A DNA stretch of 64,000 nt from an uncultured Alphaproteobacteria bacterium (GTDB taxonomy: Bacteria > Pseudomonadota > Alphaproteobacteria > RF32 > CAG-239), in the NCBI GenBank assembly GCA_944391495.1, contig CALXTU010000004.1, positions 5,041 through 69,040 on the forward strand, given 5' to 3'. How positions within the stretch are numbered: position 1 is the stretch's first letter; every line of letters begins with the position of its first letter. Below are positions 1,216 through 56,138 of the stretch, piece after piece. The position numbers and the translations under genes were made by a program. The notes beneath the pieces were generated by a model. That model had not been told where the DNA came from and did not search any database. It worked only from the letters and a program-made list of their open reading frames with translations.

Positions 1216-1246
1216 TTTGCAAATAAGGCATTTGCCGAACTAAAAA

Positions 1247-1273
1247 AGCGGGTTCTGTGCACCCGCTTTTTTA
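1247..1273 (+). terminator. Rho-independent terminator after rplS
   Basis: agcgggt-tctgtgc-acccgct hairpin followed by a T-tract. Confidence 0.6.
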
Positions 1274-1348
1274 GTACAATTTGAATCAACCAAAGGTTTG
1301 ATTTTAAGATTAAGACAAAATAAAGTTGTTGATAAACCGGAGCCGGTC

Positions 1349-1378
1349 TTGACTTTAGTTCGATTTTCGTTCTATGAA
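1349..1378 (+). promoter_or_regulatory. Candidate sigma70-type promoter for toxin cassette A
   Basis: TTGACT, an 18-nt spacer, then TATGAA, about 55 bp upstream of ATG 1432. Confidence 0.3.
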
Positions 1379-1392
1379 TATAAGCGGGGAAT

Positions 1393-1717
1393 AATTTTGT
1401 CCTCTTTTTAGAACAGAAAGGAATATCAAGGATGATAGGGGAAAAAACAACATTCCGGCAACAGCTGGAAAAATTACAAAGAGCGGGCGAGGAAAAGAGG
1501 CTTAAAGCATTGCAGGCCAAATATCCGAACCCGAATAATATTGATTACGGCAATATGAGCCTGCGCGACGAGTTGCAAACACGTTTTGATTTAGACGAGA
1601 TGAACAATCTCTCAACCAAGCTCGGCGCACCGAGCGGTTTGGCGGTCGGCAATGATAACGGCGCGCCGGTTCAAGACTTGAGCCAACGCCTGTCCGGCAA
1701 CGATACAGAGGCACAAA
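1393..1717. repeat. Repeat Z copy 1, covering the 5' leader and conserved toxin N-terminal domain
   Basis: Near-identical to 2628-2950. The first 33 codons are identical and the next ~60 codons are similar. Confidence 0.8.
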
Positions 1718-2214
1718 ACAGCTTTTATAAGCCTTTATCCAGACCAAATAAAGATAATGCCAATTGTTATATGACATTTGATGGACAAAGTTTAAATCTT
1801 GTAGGCGGCAATCCAACACATCAATACACATTAAATGCGATGTCCGGAAATCCTGATTATCAGGCCAGACAATATCAGTCAAAAAAGTATTTGGGTCCGA
1901 TACCGGAAGGAACATATTATGCCGCGCAAAATCAAAGACAAATAATTGATCCGATAAATGCCGCAGCAGGCATTATAAATGAAGGAAATTGGCGTAAATC
2001 TATCCCCGCATGGGGATTAAGACGAGTTTGGCTGCAGCCAGACATAAACACAAATACTTATGGTCGAAGTGGCTTTTCAATTCACGGAGGTTGGAAAAAA
2101 GGATCGGCAGGTTGCATAGATATTCCATGGCAAACCGGAAAGCTTAGTCGGTATTTAGATGATTGTCAGGATAACGTTCCGGTTTATGTAAAATATACCA
2201 AGGAGAAATGGTGA
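1432..2214 (+). CDS. Polymorphic toxin A: conserved N-terminal domain plus Tlde1/DUF2778-like C-terminal domain
   Basis: Residues 1-95 are shared with the ORF at 2665. The C-terminus carries GPIPEGTYY and GFSIHGGWKKGSAGCID, a His-x10-Cys arrangement like the LD-transpeptidase-fold effector Tlde1. AAGGA ribosome-binding site. Confidence 0.6.
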   Translation: MIGEKTTFRQQLEKLQRAGEEKRLKALQAKYPNPNNIDYGNMSLRDELQTRFDLDEMNNLSTKLGAPSGLAVGNDNGAPVQDLSQRLSGNDTEAQNSFYKPLSRPNKDNANCYMTFDGQSLNLVGGNPTHQYTLNAMSGNPDYQARQYQSKKYLGPIPEGTYYAAQNQRQIIDPINAAAGIINEGNWRKSIPAWGLRRVWLQPDINTNTYGRSGFSIHGGWKKGSAGCIDIPWQTGKLSRYLDDCQDNVPVYVKYTKEKW

Positions 2215-2564
2215 TGAACAAAGCCAAAGTGTATGAAAGGTTGCAGAAAATAAAAACATTTATCAAGCTTTTCAAGTGGTATATCTGTTTTTATATTTTA
2301 TACTTTTTGATATTAGTAAAAGAATATTTTTATCCGCCGGCCAAAGACGATCAAATTTGGGGTGCCCAAGAAACGATGAGCGATTGGAATTACCAGAATC
2401 AAGAGTTGTATCTTGAGTCAATAAAAATAGATATTGGAATTTCAATTTTAATTTTTTTGTTGGCGCTTAGCAATATGCAAAACTATCCGCGAATAGCCAA
2501 ACTGATTTTGCTATATCCATGGTTTATGGCACTATGGAATATAATTGAGTATGAATATATGTAA
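2214..2564 (+). CDS. Putative immunity protein A (N-terminal TM helix), translationally coupled to toxin A
   Basis: ATG 2214 overlaps the toxin stop (TGATG), 8 nt after AGGAG. It is a predicted membrane protein whose last ~29 codons lie inside repeat X. Confidence 0.5.
   Translation: MNKAKVYERLQKIKTFIKLFKWYICFYILYFLILVKEYFYPPAKDDQIWGAQETMSDWNYQNQELYLESIKIDIGISILIFLLALSNMQNYPRIAKLILLYPWFMALWNIIEYEYM
2472..2558. repeat. Repeat X copy 1
   Basis: 87 bp, ~95% identical to 4308-4396. Confidence 0.8.
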
Positions 2565-2574
2565 ATTAATAATC

Positions 2575-2633
2575 ATCCAGGCGGTAACATAAAATAAAAA
2601 CATATTTTGCAAAACAACCATAGATTTAATTTT
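2575..2633. repeat. Repeat Y copy 1
   Basis: 59 bp, similar to 3908-3966 (atccRRgcggtaacataaaat...agatttaatttt). Confidence 0.75.
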
Positions 2634-2950
2634 CCGTTTTTTAGAACAGAAAGGAATATCAAGGATGATAGGGGAAAAAACAACATTCCGGCAACAGCTG
2701 GAAAAATTACAAAGAGCGGGCGAGGAAAAGAGGCTTAAAGCATTGCAGGCCAAATATCCGAACCCTGATAATATTGACTACGGCAATATGAGCCTGCGCA
2801 ATGAATTGCAGACGCGCTTTGATCTGAACGAGATGAACAACCTATCCGCCAAACTCGGCACATCAAACGGTTTTACTGTTGGTAATGATAACAGCGCACC
2901 GGTTCAAGACTTGAGCCAACGCCTGTCCGGCAATGACAAAGGAACACAAA
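2628..2950. repeat. Repeat Z copy 2
   Basis: See copy 1. Confidence 0.8.
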
Positions 2951-3324
2951 ACGGTTTTTATGCTGCTCTCGGCAAACCGACGCCAAATTACATTCCGAAA
3001 AGCCATATCCTGGAAATAGCTGGTGCCGGCCTGCAAGGTTTCGGTAAAGGAATTGAAAGTGGAATGTTAACGGCGGTTAATGGTGCGACAAACGACTACT
3101 ATAATAAATTAAGTTCAAAATATTTAGGGGATTATTATAACAAGAATCAACGTCAAATTCAGCGGCAAGCGGAGGCGGCAGGCTTAGGTCAAGCCAACCA
3201 GATAGCTAATGATGTCATAGAATACGGTGCAAGTGCCTGGGCAGATACCAAAACCGCCGGTCTTTTATCAAGTAATTTATTTAATCAACCATGGGCGACA
3301 AATTGGTTGAAGAAGTTAAAATAA
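2665..3324 (+). CDS. Polymorphic toxin B: same N-terminal domain, Gly/Asn/Tyr-rich glycine-zipper-like C-terminus
   Basis: The N-terminal ~95 aa are near-identical to toxin A. The C-terminus (AGAGLQGFGKGIESG...) is unrelated to toxin A. Confidence 0.55.
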   Translation: MIGEKTTFRQQLEKLQRAGEEKRLKALQAKYPNPDNIDYGNMSLRNELQTRFDLNEMNNLSAKLGTSNGFTVGNDNSAPVQDLSQRLSGNDKGTQNGFYAALGKPTPNYIPKSHILEIAGAGLQGFGKGIESGMLTAVNGATNDYYNKLSSKYLGDYYNKNQRQIQRQAEAAGLGQANQIANDVIEYGASAWADTKTAGLLSSNLFNQPWATNWLKKLK

Positions 3325-3391
3325 TTTAGTAAACAAATAAGAGGCAGATATTGATTAACGATGTCTGCCTCAACAAATAAAGGAAACACTA

Positions 3392-3925
3392 ATGCCCTAT
3401 CCAGATAAACAAGCAATATTCAGCCGCATAAAAGAACTTTTGTTGCACTATGTTTTTTCATTCAAGGGTTTTGCAAACGGCTTGCAATTTGGTATAGCCA
3501 CTTCAATAGCATTTATATCTAATGATATTTTAAGCAAGTTGGATGTTTCTTTAACAATACGCAATTTTATTTATGGCTATATAATGCTGGTCGCATTTCA
3601 AAAAAGATGTCGGGATATCAACATCAAAGGGACATTAATAATAATTTTTATAACACTTGCTTTCTTTTATGTGGCAATATTTGAAGCACTTAAGCTTGAT
3701 ATGTATGGTTATTTGGATACAATATCAAAATTTTTCCTTCACGCATATGCATTTCTTGTTCTGACCATGATGATTTTACCATCATCACAAATCAAAAATG
3801 CCGAATTGACCAGCCCGTTGTTAAAATACCCGTATTTATACGTGTTAGTGTGTATTGGCATATGCCTTTGGGGTATATCCGTGGTATCAGAACATCAAGA
3901 TGAAATTATCCGAGCGGTAACATAA
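3392..3925 (+). CDS. Putative immunity protein B (polytopic membrane protein)
   Basis: 177 aa with 4-5 hydrophobic helices and an AAAGGA ribosome-binding site. It lies directly downstream of toxin B, and its 3' end runs into repeat Y. Confidence 0.45.
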   Translation: MPYPDKQAIFSRIKELLLHYVFSFKGFANGLQFGIATSIAFISNDILSKLDVSLTIRNFIYGYIMLVAFQKRCRDINIKGTLIIIFITLAFFYVAIFEALKLDMYGYLDTISKFFLHAYAFLVLTMMILPSSQIKNAELTSPLLKYPYLYVLVCIGICLWGISVVSEHQDEIIRAVT

Positions 3926-3966
3926 AATGAAAACATATTTTACGAGGCAACCAAAGATTTAATTTT
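3908..3966. repeat. Repeat Y copy 2
   Basis: See copy 1. Confidence 0.75.
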
Positions 3967-4018
3967 AATAAGTCTAATTCTCGAGACGCTTGTAATTCAT
4001 ATAGAGTTAATGGAATAA

Positions 4019-4294
4019 ATGATAAGTATTAACCCCCAAAAAATAACACAATATCTGCGGAAGGCAATTAAAATGGCAAGCCTTGTTATCGGACTGACCA
4101 TAATAGCCATAATCTGCTATATTATAGGTTATTTGCTAACAGATAAGGAGGGATGGTGTTTAAGTGAAGGACATGGTGTTTGGGATGCCGACAGACAAGA
4201 ATGCAGGCAAGATTGTCTGACTTGGCGTAAAGATATCGGTTGTGTTCCGATAACTGAAGAGAATATCAGAAAAAAAGAAAAAGGATTATTATAA
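4019..4294 (+). CDS. Small TM plus 4-Cys protein (possible orphan immunity protein)
   Basis: 91 aa with one TM helix and a Cys-rich tail. It sits between repeat Y copy 2 and repeat X copy 2. Confidence 0.3.
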   Translation: MISINPQKITQYLRKAIKMASLVIGLTIIAIICYIIGYLLTDKEGWCLSEGHGVWDADRQECRQDCLTWRKDIGCVPITEENIRKKEKGLL

Positions 4295-4307
4295 AGCCCG
4301 ATAGTAT

Positions 4308-4396
4308 AATATGCAAAACTATCCGCGATTGGCCAAACTGATTTTGCTATATCCATGGTTTATGGCGCTATGGAATATAATTGAGTATGAATATTT
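4308..4396. repeat. Repeat X copy 2 (terminal copy next to hisS)
   Basis: See copy 1. Confidence 0.8.
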
Positions 4397-4432
4397 GCGA
4401 AAGCAGAATGTTAACGGCAGGAAAGGGGCAAA

Positions 4433-5743
4433 TCAGTTTAACAGAACCTCGGCCAGCGCGGCGGCATCAAGGCTTTTTTGCTCTCCGGATGCCATATCTT
4501 TGAGGCTGTAAAGCTTGGTCTTGGCTTCCTCTTCGCCGATGATAATCAGATACGGCACGCCGATTTTGTTGGCATATTCCATTTTCTTTTTGAACTTGCA
4601 TTGCCGATACATAACGTCAACCGGAATATTCTTTTGCCGCAGTTTGCCGGCCAGGCTGACGGCCTCATCGGTGAAAGCGGCGTCTTGCGTGATAATCAGC
4701 GCCTTGTCGGGCGTCAGAACCTTAATTGGCAGCAGATTATTGGCGCGCAACTGGTCAAACAACCGTGTCAGGCCGATAGATATGCCGACGCCGGGAAATT
4801 TCTTGTCCATAAACACCGAAGACAAATTATCATAGCGGCCGCCGGAACAAACCGAGCCGAACTGCGGATATTCGTCAAAAAAGGTCTCATAAACCGTGCC
4901 GGTATAATAGTCCAACCCGCGGGTGATACTCAGATCAATCTGCATATTAGTCGCCGGCAGTCCGAGGTTTTGCGCCTGCGAAACAACCGTCTTGAGCTCG
5001 TTCAGGCCTTCGGCAAACACACCGTCTTTAATGTCAAAACCTTCAAGTTTTGCTATAATTTGCTCGTTTGAACCGTTGATTTTGATAAAATCAAGCAATC
5101 TTTGCCGTTGCGCTTCTTCCAGTCCCAAATCATTGAGCTCGCCCAAAAAGGCCTCTTCGGGAATTTTTTTGATTTTATCAACCAGCCGCAAGACGTCGAC
5201 CGTTTTGTCGGCAATGCCGAGATATTCCAAAAAGCCGCTCAAAAGCTTACGGTTGTTGATATAGATTTTAAAAGCCGGCAGCTCCAGCTTGCTGAATACC
5301 GTATAAATCACCGCCAGAACTTCCGCGTCATAAATAATATTCAGCTCGTCGCGGTCGATAATGTCGATATCGCATTGATAAAATTCGCGGAACCGGCCTT
5401 TTTGCGGGCGTTCGCCGCGGTATACCTTGCCGATTTGATAACGTTTGAACGGAAAGGTCAGTTCATTGTTATAGAGCGCGACATATTTGGCCAGCGGCAC
5501 CGTCAGGTCAAAACGCATGGCAATATCGGTGTCACCTTTTTTAAACTCGTAAATTTGTTTTTCCGTCTCGCCGCCGGATTTTGAGAGCAAAACTTCCGCC
5601 AGCTCCAACACCGGCGTATCAAGCGGCGCAAATCCGAATAATTCGTAAGTATGGGCAATGACGGCTTTCATGTGATTAAAAACAAGTTGCTCCTGCGGCA
5701 AAAGTTCCATAAACCCCTGTAACGTACGTGCGGTCATTGTCAT
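4433..5743 (-). CDS. hisS: Histidine--tRNA ligase
   Basis: Class II aaRS motifs are present. The start is taken at the internal Met (MTMTARTLQGF) after GGAGA; the longer ORF upstream has no similarity. Confidence 0.9.
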   Translation of the reverse strand: MTMTARTLQGFMELLPQEQLVFNHMKAVIAHTYELFGFAPLDTPVLELAEVLLSKSGGETEKQIYEFKKGDTDIAMRFDLTVPLAKYVALYNNELTFPFKRYQIGKVYRGERPQKGRFREFYQCDIDIIDRDELNIIYDAEVLAVIYTVFSKLELPAFKIYINNRKLLSGFLEYLGIADKTVDVLRLVDKIKKIPEEAFLGELNDLGLEEAQRQRLLDFIKINGSNEQIIAKLEGFDIKDGVFAEGLNELKTVVSQAQNLGLPATNMQIDLSITRGLDYYTGTVYETFFDEYPQFGSVCSGGRYDNLSSVFMDKKFPGVGISIGLTRLFDQLRANNLLPIKVLTPDKALIITQDAAFTDEAVSLAGKLRQKNIPVDVMYRQCKFKKKMEYANKIGVPYLIIIGEEEAKTKLYSLKDMASGEQKSLDAAALAEVLLN

Positions 5744-5879: not shown

Positions 5880-7169
5880 TTATTTTTTTCCGTGATATTT
5901 CATTTGCGGCGCCAGATAGGCACAGGGACCGAACAGCAGAGCAGTGTATTGCTTCTGGTTCAGATTGTTTCTGCCGCCCCAGAGAAGTATGGCTTGTTTG
6001 TTTCCGCTGCGCATGAGCTTGATGATATGTGCATCATCATAAAAGCCCTCCGCGGCAAATATCTCGGCCCAGGCAGGGTTTTCCAGCGACATATCCTGAA
6101 CTTTGCCGCCGATTTTTTTGCCGTTGATTTTAATACATTTCAGCAACCCTGCGACATCATTTCTCGGTCCTTGTTCTGCCAGAGGTTTGAACCACTTAGC
6201 CTGAGCATTCTCTTCCATAATGTCAAAGAGTCGTTGTTGCAGTTCCGGTGCCGCCAAATCATACAAGGTTAAAGGCAGTTTGTCTTCTTTGGCCAGATTA
6301 AGCAGCGTTTCCGGCCGGCAAAGCTTGTCCGAGAGTCTGACGGAAATCTCCTTCGGCAAAGCGGTCAGAAGTTGATCTGCTGCTGCTCGATGCCGGTCGT
6401 TGATTAATCGTTCAATCAACCGTTCGACAAGGTCGTATTGCCGGAGCCTCAGCCAGTAATTGGCCATTTTATTGGCAACGGCCAAAGAGTCGGCATCGTC
6501 AGCCCAGACGTTAAAGTCAGGAAGCTGCACCAGCTGTTCTGCCGGTATGTTCGGCCGGTAAGTCTTGTTTTTGAAAAGCAGGGACATTGCCGCTGCAGCT
6601 GTTTTCTGCAGATCGCCGGTAGCAAATAAGGCGTCTTGCCTTAATATTTTGTCCAGACCTTGCAGGATATCAACGCTGTAACCGACAACCAGCCGGCCGA
6701 ACAGCATCGTTCTGGCTTCTCCGCTCAGTCTTGCGACGGTTTTGTCATAGAAGCTTCCCGATTGTTTCTTAAGCAGTACGGGAACCCACTTTTTGTCGCT
6801 GTTGCAGACATGGACAATCTCGTCGTTTGACAGCGTGTAGCCTTTACTGGCAACGGCTCTGTCTTGTGCCGTCTCATTGTTAAAAGCAGCATAAAATTCC
6901 TCGCTGTTGCGGATTTCGTCAACAAACAGCTCCCAGAGTTTCTCGTCTTTCAGGCATTTTAGCCTGGTTGCCGGCCGCCAGAGGTGTTCAGCCATCCGGC
7001 GGAAGCGGTAATTTGGTGTCTTGCTGAGGATTTTCATCTCTCTTTTGTGGGAGAGAAGAAAATACGAGGCATAAAAGTTGCCTTTTTTTGTGTGACGTAA
7101 GGCCCATGCCGGAAATAATTTAACAACCGGAGCGACGGCTGAAACAGCCATTGTTTTAATTGAATACAT
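5880..7169 (-). CDS. Hypothetical protein (429 aa)
   Basis: Long ORF with native-looking codon usage. No recognisable domain. Confidence 0.45.
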   Translation of the reverse strand: MYSIKTMAVSAVAPVVKLFPAWALRHTKKGNFYASYFLLSHKREMKILSKTPNYRFRRMAEHLWRPATRLKCLKDEKLWELFVDEIRNSEEFYAAFNNETAQDRAVASKGYTLSNDEIVHVCNSDKKWVPVLLKKQSGSFYDKTVARLSGEARTMLFGRLVVGYSVDILQGLDKILRQDALFATGDLQKTAAAAMSLLFKNKTYRPNIPAEQLVQLPDFNVWADDADSLAVANKMANYWLRLRQYDLVERLIERLINDRHRAAADQLLTALPKEISVRLSDKLCRPETLLNLAKEDKLPLTLYDLAAPELQQRLFDIMEENAQAKWFKPLAEQGPRNDVAGLLKCIKINGKKIGGKVQDMSLENPAWAEIFAAEGFYDDAHIIKLMRSGNKQAILLWGGRNNLNQKQYTALLFGPCAYLAPQMKYHGKK

Positions 7170-12392: not shown

Positions 12393-13019
12393 GTGAAAAA
12401 GAGGGAAATAATGGTTTTAGAAAATAAGTTAAATATCACCAATCAATTAGAGTTGAATAAAATAGAAGAAAAGCTTAGTAAAGAAAAAGCTAAAAAACTT
12501 TTTGACAGTGGTAAAATAAATACTCTTAGAGTCGGTACTTTTGCCGGATTGAAGCAGATTCACAAATTTTTATTTGAAGATATTTATGATTTTGCCGGAA
12601 AAATACGGACTGTTAATCTTTCTAAAGGAAATTTTAGATTTGCGCCGGTTATGTACTTAGAGCAAGCCTTAAAACATATAGATAAAATGCCCCAATCAAC
12701 CTTTGATGAAATTGTTGAAAAATATGTTGAAATGAATATAGCTCATCCTTTTAGAGAAGGAAATGGTCGCGCTACCCGAATTTGGCTGGATTTAATCTTC
12801 AAAAAAGAACTAAAAATGGTGGTTGATTGGAATAAAATTGATAAATCCGACTATCTGTCCGCTATGGAAAGAAGCCCAATTAAAGATATTGAAATAAAAC
12901 ATCTCTTAAAAAATGCCCTTACTGATAGAATTAATGAAAGAGAAGTATTCATGAAAGGAATTGATGTTAGTTATTATTACGAAGGCTATGATGAATACGA
13001 CATCCATAAGCTGATGTAA
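12393..13019 (+). CDS. fic: Fic/Doc family protein (AMPylator-type)
   Basis: Canonical HPFREGNGR Fic motif. Size and layout resemble E. coli Fic. An alternative start exists at 12411. Confidence 0.85.
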
Positions 13020-26590: not shown

Positions 26591-28160
26591 ATCGGGATTT
26601 TTCTTTCTTCTGAAACATTTTAGCAAAACCTTTCTTGGCTTTAGATGTCTTTTCGGAGGAAACATTAGAAGCTTTTTCTTGTTTGTTTTCCTTCTGCACA
26701 ACTTGTTGTGCCGAGGGATCGGCAACTTCTACCCAAGTTTTAGTATCTTTATTTGTTGTAGTATCTTTATTTATAGATTCTTCTATCTCCTGAATTTTTT
26801 TATCTTTAATCGTCTGACGACGTTTTTTCAAATCCTGCTGTGCCTGTTCCAAGGTTATATTTTGATAATCATTTCTGATTTTCTGCACTTTCTTGTCACT
26901 CATATCCAAATCCAAATTCGACAAGTCAAGTCCGTTGACAAAAGTCTGGAAGGTTTGAAAATCTTTTTTCGTTACGGATGTTTTGCCGTCAATGGAATTC
27001 CATAACTCATTTAAATAAGTCTGATAGTTTTGTTGAGCCTTGGTATATGAATATCCCTGAACCTTGTTCTTGGTATTAGGTATTCCGCCCAAAACATGTT
27101 TGTCGCCATCGCCGGCCCATGACGAGTAGGACGTATGAACCTTTTGACCGTCCGACGATAAAACGGCCGAACCGTCAGCATTGTAAAGAACACCGATTTC
27201 TACGGGGCTCTTAGCCAAAATATCAGGAGATACAACCGGTTCATCACCGGCAGTTTTGTGCAAAACAGAAGTTTTATATTTTCCGTCTTCACTGGCATAT
27301 TGCCAAATACAATAACTGGTGCTGTCAATAGAAACATTTTGCCAGTCGTTGCCGGAGCGTTCAAAAATTTCATAAGTGGTTTCGGGAATGATTTCTTCCA
27401 CCGATTTTGCCAAAACAATGGAGCCCCAGTTTGTATTATAGTTGCGTGTATAACCGTCCAAATGTTTTCCCTTAAAATATTCTGTAGTTTCTTTGGCCGA
27501 TTTTTTATCTCCTTCCTTAAAACAAATTAATTCGGCGAGTATTTCGGCACGTGCTCGGTCCGAAACTTTCATAAATAACGTGCCGTCATACAATTTATCG
27601 CGAACATCAGCCATAAGCGCATGTGTCTTTTCATGGTCGGCAACGGATGCGGAATAATTGTTTTTATTAATGTTATCTATCAGCTGCTGTTCTGCATCGG
27701 TCGGGTTATTTATCCGATATTGGTTATAAACAATGCCGACTCCGTCAATATATTTTCCGGCCGGACGGTGAGAATTATATATGGCATCCAGAGAAGGAAA
27801 TTCTTCTATATGAAGATAATGTTTTATTTGTTTAGATGTCGAAGTCGTATCTTCTTTTATTTGGGATTCGGAATGATCATCTGCCGACGATTCCAGGCCA
27901 TCTACATAATAGGTTGAGTCATCTTTCTCTGCTTGAGAAGATGGCGTATTGACGACAAAAGTTGTTTTTCCTTTTAATTCATTATCTTGAGGTGTCTGGT
28001 CCGTGATGTTTGCTCCCGAGGCAAAAGGTGCCAATCCCAAAAAGAAACCCGCCACAGATGATGCAAACTTATTTATGGAAACATTAGAATTTTGCATTTC
28101 GTCATTTTTTTGCTTCTTTGCTTTAATATTTTTAATACGTTCTAGATAATCAGCATCCAT
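26589..28160 (-). CDS. AT-rich gene for a 523-aa predicted secreted protein with an HExxH motif and a Lys-rich coiled-coil tail
   Basis: A hydrophobic signal-like segment near the N-terminus, an HEKTH motif mid-protein and a K/Q/E-rich C-terminus. Composition is visibly AT-richer than the neighbours. Confidence 0.55.
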   Translation of the reverse strand: MDADYLERIKNIKAKKQKNDEMQNSNVSINKFASSVAGFFLGLAPFASGANITDQTPQDNELKGKTTFVVNTPSSQAEKDDSTYYVDGLESSADDHSESQIKEDTTSTSKQIKHYLHIEEFPSLDAIYNSHRPAGKYIDGVGIVYNQYRINNPTDAEQQLIDNINKNNYSASVADHEKTHALMADVRDKLYDGTLFMKVSDRARAEILAELICFKEGDKKSAKETTEYFKGKHLDGYTRNYNTNWGSIVLAKSVEEIIPETTYEIFERSGNDWQNVSIDSTSYCIWQYASEDGKYKTSVLHKTAGDEPVVSPDILAKSPVEIGVLYNADGSAVLSSDGQKVHTSYSSWAGDGDKHVLGGIPNTKNKVQGYSYTKAQQNYQTYLNELWNSIDGKTSVTKKDFQTFQTFVNGLDLSNLDLDMSDKKVQKIRNDYQNITLEQAQQDLKKRRQTIKDKKIQEIEESINKDTTTNKDTKTWVEVADPSAQQVVQKENKQEKASNVSSEKTSKAKKGFAKMFQKKEKSR

Positions 28161-28909: not shown

Positions 28910-29506
28910 ATGCAATATCTTGAAAAAATAGTCCGGCTGGTAGAAAAAGGCAGAATAAAAACCAAGTATTCGCATCATAATTTGATTTACCGTCGGCAAA
29001 ACCATTTTATTTTCAGTGTTGATTGTTCAGGGCTGATTGAATTTTGGCTTTCCAAGCGCGCACCCTTGGCTCTGGCGGAAATTTATGATTTCGTCTACCG
29101 CGTTCGTCCCGTCGGCAAAGAACAAATTAAACGTTTATATTCTTTTGATTTTTACGATTATTTTGGTTCAATAGCGGAAAAAGGCGGGCAGCATTGGCAA
29201 GTTGTTGATACAATGCAGGTCTTGCGGCAGGGAGATATCATTGCCTTTATTAACCAGAACCATCGCGGAAGGTTTGGGCATATTGCTGTTGTTGATAAAG
29301 AAATCGAACGTAATTCGGAGCGGATAGTTGTCAGGATAATTGATTCCAGTACGGTTGAACACATTGATGACTGCCGGCCGTCTGTCAAAAAAGGCATCGG
29401 CAAGGGGAGTATAGAGCTTCATTTAACGAACGGAAAAATAACCTCGGTTTGTTATACGCCCAGTTGTTACAAATCCAGACAAGTTATGATAGGCAGATTA
29501 AAATGA
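28910..29506 (+). CDS. NlpC/P60-family cysteine peptidase-like protein (no signal peptide)
   Basis: A DCSGL Cys motif and a GHIAVV His motif spaced as in NlpC/P60. Confidence 0.55.
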   Translation: MQYLEKIVRLVEKGRIKTKYSHHNLIYRRQNHFIFSVDCSGLIEFWLSKRAPLALAEIYDFVYRVRPVGKEQIKRLYSFDFYDYFGSIAEKGGQHWQVVDTMQVLRQGDIIAFINQNHRGRFGHIAVVDKEIERNSERIVVRIIDSSTVEHIDDCRPSVKKGIGKGSIELHLTNGKITSVCYTPSCYKSRQVMIGRLK

Positions 29507-54515: not shown

Positions 54516-56138
54516 ATGGATCATAAACAATTTCTTCTGGATGAATACAAAAGAGAACGTCAAGAACCGGCATATTTCTCTTTGCCGGACGGGGAGAGTG
54601 TGCTTATGCCCTGCGTCTACCACGGCGATAAAGACGCATTTGTTGATGACTGGCTGTCTTTTCAGAATGAAGAACTGCAGAAATATGATACTCACAATGC
54701 CGCCAACCCGGACAATCCCATAGAAATTCCCGAGCCGTTGAAATATGACGACCTTTATATTTTCCCGCCGTTAAAAGGAGTCCTTAAAAACTGGTCGGAG
54801 CAAAAGATTATCAACAAAGCACTGCGCACGGCCATGCGTAAATACAAAGCGGCAATAAAACAGACGGCGCAAGTTGCCAAAATATATCCGAAAGATGATT
54901 TTATTACCAGTCTGAACAAGGATGCCGTTTCCAGATTAAAAAAACTGCATAACGACTATAAAAAAGAAAAATTAAAACAAAACCTGGCCAGGACTTTCAA
55001 ATTCACGGCTAAACAAACGGCCAATATTCTGGCCGGTGCAACCGGAGCTCTGCCGGCCGCCGCATATTATCTGTTGGATAAAAAAGTGCGCTTTGCCAAA
55101 AGCAAAACCAAGAGTTTTATTGATAATACAGCTTTGCCGTATATTCGCAGAGGTGTTGCAAAGTTCCTGGTCTTGGTATGTCTTACGGGAGCAGTCAACT
55201 TAACGTCTGTCATCAAAGAAAAGCATCAGGACAAAATTGAGCAGCAAATGCTTCAAGCCCGTGAGCAAGCTGAAAAAGAAGCCTTTTTTGCCAAATATCA
55301 AACCACTAACGAGGCCTTTTATAAAAATTATAAACAGGCCAAAAACTTAGAGCAGGAATTTATCTGTCTGTTGTCCTGTTATGAAGATTATCATGAACAG
55401 GCTTATAAATGCCAGGCCGGCAAATGGACCGTCGGCTACGGATCACGGCAGTTGGCTGATGGTACGCCTGTTGTTAAAGGAACCACCGTCACCCGGAAAG
55501 ACGCCGCGGCGGCCGTTACCAAGCATATGGAAAAATACGTCTATCCTCAGCTTTGTCATATTAATAAAGAACTTTCGCCGGAACAGCTGATGGCTGTCAA
55601 TATGTTTATCTACAACACGGACGAAAACGCTTTCCGAAATTCAAAAGTCTGCCGTGCCATTAACGACAATGCCGATGAAACCAAAATGCGGGAGGCCTTT
55701 TCTTACTATCGCAGCGTTAACGGCAAGCGCAGTTACGGTCTGATCAACCGTCGCGGTTTTGAAGGCTATTTATGGAGCTGCGGCAATCTGGCCGATGTTT
55801 TGCTGATGAGCCCCAATCTGGCCGGCAGTCAGGATATCCGCTATTTCGAATATCCAGATACCGATAGTCGCAATCCGCATGAAAATCCGGACGAAACTTT
55901 TGTCGTGCGGCAAAAAGATGAAGTAAAACGGGATTTGAAAAAATTTAAAGTTTCCAATCTTTCGCAGAGCATCTTAGGCAATACCACACCGGAAATTTGT
56001 GATAATTTGTGTGATAAATACGGAATTTATGAAGAAAACAATCAAATCAAACAACTGCAGGTTATCACGGTCGATAATTCTCAAACCGGCAAGGCCATTA
56101 CTTTTGCTCAGGCTCAAAGGTTAAAGGAAAGTCGTTAA
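54516..56138 (+). CDS. Multidomain protein with an internal T4-lysozyme-like (GH24) domain
   Basis: E-x8-C-x5-T spacing (YEDYHEQAYKCQAGKWTVGYGS) and a downstream GH24-like helix (SPEQLMAVNMFIYN). No signal peptide. The N-terminal ~290 aa have no recognisable similarity. Confidence 0.5.
   Translation: MDHKQFLLDEYKRERQEPAYFSLPDGESVLMPCVYHGDKDAFVDDWLSFQNEELQKYDTHNAANPDNPIEIPEPLKYDDLYIFPPLKGVLKNWSEQKIINKALRTAMRKYKAAIKQTAQVAKIYPKDDFITSLNKDAVSRLKKLHNDYKKEKLKQNLARTFKFTAKQTANILAGATGALPAAAYYLLDKKVRFAKSKTKSFIDNTALPYIRRGVAKFLVLVCLTGAVNLTSVIKEKHQDKIEQQMLQAREQAEKEAFFAKYQTTNEAFYKNYKQAKNLEQEFICLLSCYEDYHEQAYKCQAGKWTVGYGSRQLADGTPVVKGTTVTRKDAAAAVTKHMEKYVYPQLCHINKELSPEQLMAVNMFIYNTDENAFRNSKVCRAINDNADETKMREAFSYYRSVNGKRSYGLINRRGFEGYLWSCGNLADVLLMSPNLAGSQDIRYFEYPDTDSRNPHENPDETFVVRQKDEVKRDLKKFKVSNLSQSILGNTTPEICDNLCDKYGIYEENNQIKQLQVITVDNSQTGKAITFAQAQRLKESR

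Follow-up and report, generated by a model that had tools for sequence, protein, structure and literature searches.

What has assembled the cluster of repeats and small genes that separates rplS from hisS in the 64,000-nucleotide stretch of contig CALXTU010000004.1 (hereafter the window, meaning this whole stretch), from an uncultured gut alphaproteobacterium? The cluster occupies positions 1276–4397, bounded by the rplS terminator on one side and by the 3' end of hisS on the other, and has a G+C content of 38%, compared to 49% in its flanks. An earlier note, made from the sequence of the window, had described three repeats in this island, X, Y, and Z, as conserved junctions that flank every cassette and are substrates for the homologous recombination that shuffles toxin and immunity modules. 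After comparison with related loci, we consider it very likely (a probability of about 85%) that the region is a chromosomal polymorphic toxin–immunity island, in which cassettes have been swapped via Z, toxins were later deleted, and immunity genes were kept.

Variation among Related Loci

Twelve further loci at the rplS–hisS site, obtained through genome, metagenome, and exact-protein look-ups and mapped with one module library, display at least six different cassette arrangements. Four cassettes, A (a Tlde1 toxin), B, C, and D (a bacterial SAA/lipocone toxin), are found there; their order varies, and truncated remnants of toxins accompany them. Each cassette consists of a small toxin gene, encoding a constant N-terminal domain (the N-domain), a linker, and a variable C-terminal toxin domain, followed by a small gene for a membrane protein, the putative cognate immunity protein. 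The pairs toxA–immA, toxB–immB, toxC–immC, and toxD–immD stay together at every locus that has a complete toxin, and at one site four unrelated C-termini follow the same N-domain (hidden Markov model [HMM] E-values of 1e-13 to 1e-36). The order found in the window, A, B, a toxD remnant with immD, and X, is shared by L003 and L004 and, partially, by L005. L039 and L040 have it too, except that X stops at nucleotide 76 and is followed by a 213-nucleotide immC remnant. In L041, D and immD are followed by an 88-nucleotide spacer and a full-length second immA allele next to hisS, whereas L042 reads immD, immA allele 2, Y, and Z onwards. L006 contains D, a 171-nucleotide toxB remnant with immB, and then Y-P-Z-toxC and immC (P being a segment described below); L002 reads immA, Y, D, a 79-nucleotide toxB remnant with a diverged immB, a partial Y, and immC; and L001 contains C only. 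The earlier note had proposed this comparison as a check, with an invariant locus as the outcome that would count against cassette exchange; the locus is clearly far from invariant, its cassettes varying in both presence and order.

The cassettes are also far more alike than the chromosomes that carry them. Housekeeping genes of the window (trmD, rplS, hisS, asd, and mscK) have diverged by 10–25% from those of the L001/L002/L006 lineage, whereas cassettes are 94–100% identical between lineages in which these flanks are only 75–90% identical. With that same lineage, the window shares Z at 97% identity, immA at 100% (over 181 nucleotides), Y at 98–100%, immB at 95%, and immD at 94–95%; the 97% applies to the first copy of Z, where the flanking genes are only 85–90% identical. 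Modules more alike than their flanks are what horizontal acquisition predicts, and the cassettes have thus moved horizontally.

One point of exchange can be placed within Z. L004 carries a divergent 5' allele of Z (the promoter-proximal region and about 32 codons) joined to a toxA-type remainder; L041 carries the same 5' allele joined to a middle segment of the type seen in the second Z copy of the window and to a toxD end; and in L002 the other 5' allele is joined to toxD. The toxD end is thus found on two different Z alleles across loci. The variable ends leave Z at nested points, after amino acid 63 for toxD, after about amino acid 98 for toxA, and after about amino acid 107 for toxB and toxC. 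These mosaic alleles make Z the demonstrated homologous anchor. Judged by perfect run length (128 nucleotides in Z, compared to 35 in X and 15 in Y), Z would also be the only repeat in the window that is comfortably long enough for RecA-type exchange. The shuffling of modules proposed earlier is therefore supported, with Z as its anchor, but X and Y are not good RecA substrates.

The Repeats and the Upstream Segment

All three repeats are real, although their extents differ somewhat from those first reported. On the forward strand, where all island features described here lie, X measures 90 nucleotides (2472–2561 and 4308–4397) rather than 87 bp; Y measures 63 (copy 2, 2571–2633; copy 3, 3904–3966), a few bases off the earlier placement at 2575 and 3908; and Z measures 337 and 335 (1392–1728 and 2627–2961) rather than about 325 bp from 1393 and 2628. 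The copies of X agree at 86 of 90 positions, with a longest perfect run of 35 nucleotides, and a 44-nucleotide core occurs exactly twice in the window against an expectation of 0.00. Copies 2 and 3 of Y agree at 54 of 63 positions (86%, copy 3 being the diverged one) and share no perfect run longer than 15 nucleotides, but copy 2 is 98–100% identical in L002, L004, L006, L039, and L042. The last 21 nucleotides of Y match the window three times (0.02 expected). The extra match, at 1287–1307, belongs to a third, partial copy comprising about the last 23 nucleotides (1284–1307), which was absent from the earlier note; it lies behind the rplS terminator, at the start of the toxin upstream region, and the same 23 nucleotides are also found behind rplS in L001 and L006. 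The two copies of Z are 88% identical overall, and their first 128 nucleotides are perfectly identical. No further copy of X, Y, Z, the N-domain, or any cassette protein was found elsewhere in the 64 kb.

To say that the repeats flank every cassette was loose wording, because Z lies inside the toxin genes: it comprises the ribosome-binding site and codons 1–99 of each toxin gene, the codons encoding the N-domain and the linker, and is not a flank. X is the last 30 codons of immA, whose reading frame runs through the repeat to end in MQNYPRIAKLILLYPWFMALWNIIEYEYM, and immB ends inside Y with its stop at 3925, both as noted earlier. Y itself is composite. Its first 22 nucleotides, even behind the unrelated immA, code for the end of an immB-type gene (..IIQAVT*); after them come an 18-nucleotide spacer and the 23 nucleotides with which the conserved region upstream of the toxins begins. 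Rather than dedicated junction elements, X and Y are better regarded as scars carried along with the cassettes.

Between the partial copy of Y and the first Z lies an 84-nucleotide segment, P (1308–1391), in which TTGACT...TATGAATATAAG is conserved (a TTGACT...TATGAA element). P appears promoter-like, and operon transcription of the cassettes would start from it. P stands behind the 23-nucleotide end of Y wherever a cassette is the first of its locus, and also in the internal cassette of L006. The internal Y–Z junction of the window has lost P by a deletion between AATTTT(g)(t)CC microhomologies, and toxB therefore probably depends on read-through from upstream. A scan of the island against Rfam at E ≤ 1 gave sub-threshold noise only and no structured RNA.

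Cassettes of the Window

The 260 amino acid product of toxA (1432–2214) combines the helical-hairpin N-domain and the linker with a Tlde1 (L,D-transpeptidase-like) domain. Residues 134–231 match Pfam PF10908 (E = 3.3e-8; 34.4 bits, with a cut-off of 30.1), and the protein retains His218 and a Gly227–Cys228 dyad that corresponds to G130–C131 of Tlde1a (PMC9638812). Compared with the PDB, the whole ToxA sequence gave chance matches only, to ribosomal protein S9 within the C-terminal domain. The start of immA is most likely the ATG at 2214 rather than position 2208, giving a gene (2214–2564) of 116 amino acids that overlaps the toxA stop by one base; immA is also called at 116 amino acids in L003 and L004. 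Its product, the presumed immunity protein of toxA, has two predicted transmembrane segments and no match to a curated family, and its homologues form only four clusters among 5.8 billion proteins. In toxB (2665–3324; 219 amino acids), the same N-domain (HMM E = 1.5e-35) is followed by a Gly-rich helical C-terminal domain that has no Pfam or NCBIfam family, and a homologue search yielded family members only (P0022, P0027, and P0039). The next gene, immB (3392–3925; 177 amino acids), encodes a multi-pass membrane protein, the putative immunity protein for toxB, and is retained behind truncated toxB remnants in L006 and L002. Hydropathy profiles separate the two classes of protein: toxA and the other toxins contain no transmembrane or hydrophobic segment, whereas immA, immB, the product of the open reading frame (ORF) at 4019–4294, and immC of related loci all have transmembrane segments.

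Of cassette D, only a small part of the toxin gene remains. Positions 3977–4032 (56 nucleotides, about 17 codons, ..SRDACNSYRVNGINDKY*) are 98% identical to the 3' end of toxD in L002, and the protein of the following ORF (4019–4294; 91 amino acids, with one transmembrane helix and a four-cysteine domain) is 100% identical to the immD product encoded next to an intact toxD in L041. Full-length toxD matches the Pfam family SAA (E = 6.5e-20) and is always paired with a four-cysteine membrane protein; the four extracytoplasmic cysteines of immD (C47, C62, C66, and C75) recur without exception in six SAA-linked partners, even at 33% identity. The part of PMC12419801 used here describes an immunity family with a helix and four strands, with four absolutely conserved cysteines, that is coupled to prok-SAA toxins. 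From its sequence, immD appears to fit this family and would share its predicted four-strand fold. The ORF at 4019–4294 is best read as the intact orphan immunity gene of a deleted toxD, not as debris. The earlier note was thus right to see this ORF and the terminal X as relics of lost cassettes, except that the ORF is intact rather than decayed. The toxD genes themselves (L002, 282–929; L006, 3990–4667; L041, 153–800) encode a clear bacterial homologue of animal serum amyloid A.

The terminal copy of X shares all three internal differences between the two X copies with the full-length immA of L041, the second allele, which lies there between immD and hisS. The terminal X is therefore a remnant of a second immA allele that traveled with cassette D; a simple intragenomic duplication of the first X is ruled out by the allele comparison. 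In L041, the 15-mer AATATGCAAAACTAT occurs twice, 13 nucleotides behind the immD stop and at the start of X, and a deletion between these copies would reproduce the immD–X junction of the window exactly. The window remnant is fused to the downstream flank of hisS. A stand-alone 66 amino acid ORF encoding the X peptide, reported earlier at 4311, is present (4311–4511), but X accounts for only its first 29 codons; beyond these it runs antisense to the 3' end of hisS, which it overlaps from 4433. In L039, the start of this ORF reads into an out-of-frame immC remnant instead. It is probably not a gene.

Turnover of Cassettes

The proposed sequence of events begins with incoming cassettes, which would recombine through Z, through the housekeeping flanks (probably), or through both. 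Resident toxins would be removed by illegitimate or microhomology deletions, and the immunity genes would be retained, presumably as protection against neighbors that keep the old toxin. In the window, the outcome of this process would be the orphan immD behind 56 nucleotides of toxD and the 90-nucleotide immA remnant by hisS. Most junctions other than those in Z are illegitimate or microhomology joins. Copy 3 of Y runs about 12 nucleotides into P and then joins the last 56 nucleotides of toxD; X is joined to immC in L039 at TAT(A/T)ATTG; Y is joined to the start of immC in L002 at AAATGAAA.C.TATATT; and the terminal X of the window joins the hisS flank where immC ends in other loci. A plausible order, oldest first, would place cassette C by hisS (now gone except in L039), then the block of D and the second immA allele, later B together with the toxD deletion, and finally A at the promoter-proximal end.

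L003 (5897–7550; ERZ16268083 scaffold_19) has lost both toxin start codons, through 14- and 48-nucleotide deletions ending at the same base, and its toxA also has a 219-bp deletion in the Tlde1 domain; immA, immB, and immD are 99.8–100% intact. L003 could be a strain that is disarmed yet still immune, or its scaffold could be misassembled.

The Constant N-Terminal Domain

The N-domain is a helical hairpin of about 65 amino acids with the core motif PDYxNMSLRDELQTRFDLDE and 18 columns that are invariant in the family. It is rare: 20 relatives turned up among 5.8 billion proteins in a word-indexed search, and 45 clusters among 1.84 billion cluster representatives in a full HMM search. In all of these clusters but one, the domain begins within about the first 15 residues of a 100–290 amino acid protein; the exception, P0042, is a 387 amino acid lipoprotein fusion. 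A Q/P/S/T-rich linker follows the domain and leads into unrelated C-termini, which are of the SAA type in 8 of the 35 members and of the Tlde1/YkuD type in three or four, with several types having no assigned family; one lysozyme-like match was weak and sub-threshold (E = 0.024). The AlphaFold model is a helix–loop–helix (H8–30 and H44–64; pLDDT 88), i.e., a generic helical hairpin, for which Foldseek found nothing in the PDB below E = 3. A scan of viral contigs found no relative of the N-domain and no sign of a phage origin, and in library scans the domain showed none of the signatures of established secretion or packaging routes (PAAR, Rhs, LXG/WXG, TPS/FHA, MuF, or a signal peptide).

In some family members (P0047, P0052, and P0057–P0059), the core motif, as PDYxxMSLR[DE]EL..RF, occurs twice in tandem at the N-terminus, which suggests that the motif helix may be the functional unit of the domain. 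Eleven human-gut contigs (L023–L033; e.g., L023, 5611–6774) encode a 387 amino acid in-frame fusion of a lipobox protein (MPFLTGC...) to a family toxin. The fusion joins the toxin from residue 32 of the N-domain; helix 1 is lost and the MSLRDELQTRF helix is kept. Compared with L013 (4536–6846), the fusion contigs have a deletion of the helix-turn-helix (HTH) gene. An Xre-type HTH regulator gene adjoins the toxin–immunity pair in distant lineages (L007, 8209–8928; L013, 5194–5913; L036, 5797–6333), and no such gene is present in the island of the window.

Export Route

The recognizable cargoes, Tlde1 and SAA/lipocone, act on the cell envelope from the periplasmic side, yet they have no signal peptide. 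In the surroundings of eight further family members, none adjoins genes for a type VI, type IV, type I, or type VII secretion system (T6SS, T4SS, T1SS, or T7SS); the neighbors are housekeeping genes, an autotransporter, HTH regulators, and once flagellar rod genes. Export by a T6SS, colicin-like release and import, or an undescribed route are all possible. The widespread variant with a lipoprotein signal keeps the motif helix, a hint that the motif may act after export, and by analogy with colicin-type bacteriocins it may function in receptor binding or import. A bolder proposal is that the N-domain marks an undescribed small family of polymorphic toxins in uncultured gut Alphaproteobacteria and specifies an export or target-entry route unlike those known; we offer this tentatively, with the odds against it.

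Alternative Explanations

The repeats could have been conserved by function only, Z for the N-domain and its translation start and Y for regulation, with the arrangements arising by vertical descent and by duplication and loss in each genome. Z does encode the most conserved protein segment of the family, with its invariant columns, and the identity of the first 128 nucleotides of both copies within one genome could be explained by constraint or gene conversion. Vertical descent is, however, difficult to reconcile with cassettes that are so much more alike across lineages than their flanks, with a terminal X that is not a copy of the first but a different allele, full-length elsewhere, and with the same 5' Z allele on different toxin ends and the same toxin end on different Z alleles; we consider it unlikely. 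Site-specific recombination of the integron kind might be suspected from the size of Y, which at about 59–63 bp resembles the classical "59-base element", and from its position between cassettes, where it could serve an integrase as an attC-type site. As single-stranded DNA, however, copies 2 and 3 fold no better than shuffled sequences on either strand (z = +0.26, −0.03, +1.07, and +0.67), and the trmD–asd interval contains no integrase or recombinase gene, either in the window or in the loci syntenic to it; Y was rejected as an attC site for these two reasons. Furthermore, the junctions vary in position by locus and lie inside genes at short microhomologies, and at its 5' end Y is no more than an immB-type gene tail. 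We attach almost no weight to an integron-like mechanism.

Assembly artefacts, whether chimeras induced by repeats or several strains collapsed into one metagenome-assembled genome, might also have generated the tandem order and the terminal remnants: L002 ends exactly at an X/Y/Z junction, as expected where repeats break assemblies, and several scaffolds have odd indels inside Z. That explanation is exceedingly improbable, as the window order recurs across the island in four assemblies from other samples (L003, L004, L039, and L040), with cassettes 99–100% identical, and a fifth, short contig (L005, 1.7 kb) agrees from the first X into immD. Finally, the proteins could be intracellular effectors of an immunity or programmed-death system, in which the N-domain would be an adaptor onto a core NTPase, akin to the effector-associated domain (EAD) EAD7, and the partners in the membrane would not confer immunity. 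EADs are small, all-helical modules attached to the N-termini of effectors (PMC7159879), and 5 of the 35 family members have sub-threshold Pfam matches to EAD7 over the conserved helix at E ≤ 0.05 (best E = 0.0056). Those matches (PF19960) score only 13–16 bits, the best being 15.5, against a cut-off of 32, and at no locus does an adjacent gene fuse a second EAD copy to a core component (VMAP, vWA-MoxR, or GAP1 GTPase); a PADLOC scan finds nothing. The identifiable C-terminal domains (Tlde1, SAA/lipocone, and, by a weak match only, a lysozyme-like one) target the envelope from its periplasmic face (PMC9638812 and the part of PMC12419801 used here), and the partners are membrane proteins that include a described immunity family. 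We therefore regard an EAD-type system as very unlikely.

Several observations nevertheless weigh against a polymorphic toxin–immunity island. The N-domain has no match above threshold in Pfam, NCBIfam, PADLOC, or PHROGs, and no secretion system was found in the 64-kb window, whose large ORFs were inspected, or next to any related locus; the case for an interbacterial role consequently rests on the C-terminal domains and on the logic of the gene pairs. Even there, the C-termini of toxB and toxC belong to no recognizable family, the AlphaFold model of the toxB C-terminal part is poor (pLDDT 45), and we infer toxicity and immunity from the sequences of the cassette proteins. A strict sigma-70 scan did not call P, and its 18 hits differ from the shuffle expectation (11.8 ± 3.4) by no more than about two standard deviations. 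Among the comparison loci are several metagenome scaffolds with small indels, and some apparently decayed genes may be assembly errors. Function by itself could also account for the high conservation of Z, although this would not exclude recombination.

Borders and Other Genes of the Window

The left border of the island is the intrinsic terminator of rplS (1239–1275, forward strand), an inverted repeat followed by a T run, whose hairpin folds as DNA with −18.9 kcal/mol (z = −5.3). On the right, the border is hisS (4433–5737, reverse strand), identified by tRNA-synt_His and HGTP_anticodon matches. The window contains the diderm markers lpxK and kdtA, together with OmpA-like genes. A 429 amino acid ORF without a Pfam family adjoins hisS (5880–7169, reverse strand). 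Its product is only 71–73% identical over part of its length to those of L003 and L004, compared to 98–100% for neighboring genes, and its homologues range from 429 to 524 amino acids across loci; hypervariable between strains, it may represent another diversifying gene adjacent to the toxin island. Elsewhere in the window are a 540 amino acid protein (54516–56138, forward) with a phage-lysozyme domain (E = 1.9e-19; residues 289–414) behind a long N-terminal region of no assigned family, a 198 amino acid protein (28910–29506, forward) with a weak CHAP match, and a 523 amino acid protein (26589–28160, reverse) with no family match; going by their sequences, these may be further cell-wall-active effectors. 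A putative Fic motif can be read from the translation of the ORF at 12393–13019 (forward).

Relation to Known Systems

Systems of this kind are well known; what is new is the constant domain and its possible mode of delivery. The underlying principle has been established for Rhs, contact-dependent inhibition, T6SS, and T7SS loci, and the island extends known biology without overturning it. It does so as a compact and unusually legible example of toxin–immunity turnover, in which full, half-deleted, and intermediate cassettes can be aligned base by base across gut populations. The organisms are uncultured Alphaproteobacteria of the human gut, and how they compete has hardly been studied. The island also adds a rare, small toxin family (45 clusters among the 1.84 billion representatives) whose constant domain is absent from the curated libraries searched. 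In the sense of Zhang et al. 2012, as relayed in the part of PMC12419801 used here, polymorphic toxins have a constant N-terminal region with variable C-termini and a downstream, co-varying immunity gene, and both are found in the island.

Two of the cassettes have counterparts among described toxin–immunity pairs. Like Tlde1 of Tlde1/Tldi1, a Salmonella pathogenicity island 6 T6SS effector with a periplasmic immunity protein (PMC9638812), toxA scores above the family cut-off, has the Gly–Cys dyad, and has no signal peptide; it differs in its additional N-domain and linker, in its partner immA, with two transmembrane segments and no curated family, and in its lack of a T6SS context. The SAA-family toxD and immD, with its N-terminal helix and four cysteines, resemble the prok-SAA lipocone toxins and four-cysteine immunity proteins of Burroughs, Nicastro and Aravind 2025 (PMC12419801), although the window keeps only 56 nucleotides of the toxin and immD is an orphan. 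In the part of that paper considered here, the four-cysteine immunity family is also coupled to Min-Wnt toxins, SAA-like toxins are predicted, with experimental characterization reported for the TelC family only, and the trafficking domains named (signal peptide/lipobox, PAAR, WXG/LXG, VirD4-binding, T9SS [type IX secretion system], MuF, cystatin-like, and TPM) do not include the N-domain. The locus thus provides a natural test case for bacterial SAA-like toxins and four-cysteine immunity proteins, including their predicted enzymatic role.

As whole loci, the LXG/EsaD-type T7SS toxins of Firmicutes, with tandem immunity paralogues (PMC9484751), are alike in their helical N-terminus, variable toxin C-terminus, and recombined immunity arrays, but the organism studied here is diderm, its toxins have no WXG/LXG match, and a 65 amino acid hairpin is far shorter than LXG. 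Orphan modules of Rhs and CdiA (Koskiniemi et al. 2014, PMC3967940; PMC9086364) likewise have a constant 5' and a variable 3' toxin region with a downstream immunity gene and form strings of displaced 3' fragments with immunity genes, and recombination between their constant segments can reactivate or delete modules. The island, in contrast, has neither Rhs/YD nor filamentous hemagglutinin repeats and neither a VENN nor a PxxxxDPxGL motif; its toxins, at 205–260 amino acids, show no Pfam domain of the Rhs or CdiA kind, its constant part spans only about 65–100 codons, and its divergence points are nested.

The T6SS orphan immunity arrays of Vibrio cholerae, which grow by sequential displacement (Kirchberger et al. 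2017, PMC5361080), offer a further parallel. There, too, modules are acquired horizontally at one locus, by homologous recombination and rare illegitimate joins with no specific integration site, and when an old effector is displaced or truncated, its immunity gene survives, along with a 3' remnant of that effector. Such a remnant in front of an orphan immunity gene is found in the window (56 nucleotides of toxD) and, for toxB, in L006 (171 nucleotides) and L002 (79 nucleotides). The location differs: no T6SS gene is recognized in the 64 kb, and so the island does not lie at the 3' end of a T6SS cluster; instead of adjoining structural, VgrG, or adaptor genes, it has trmD, rplS, hisS, and asd as its neighbors. 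Its toxins, of 200–260 amino acids, carry a family-specific N-domain, and several complete ones stand in tandem. Whereas the Vibrio arrays are anchored in an upstream structural gene, the anchor of the island is Z, the 5' end of the toxin gene itself.

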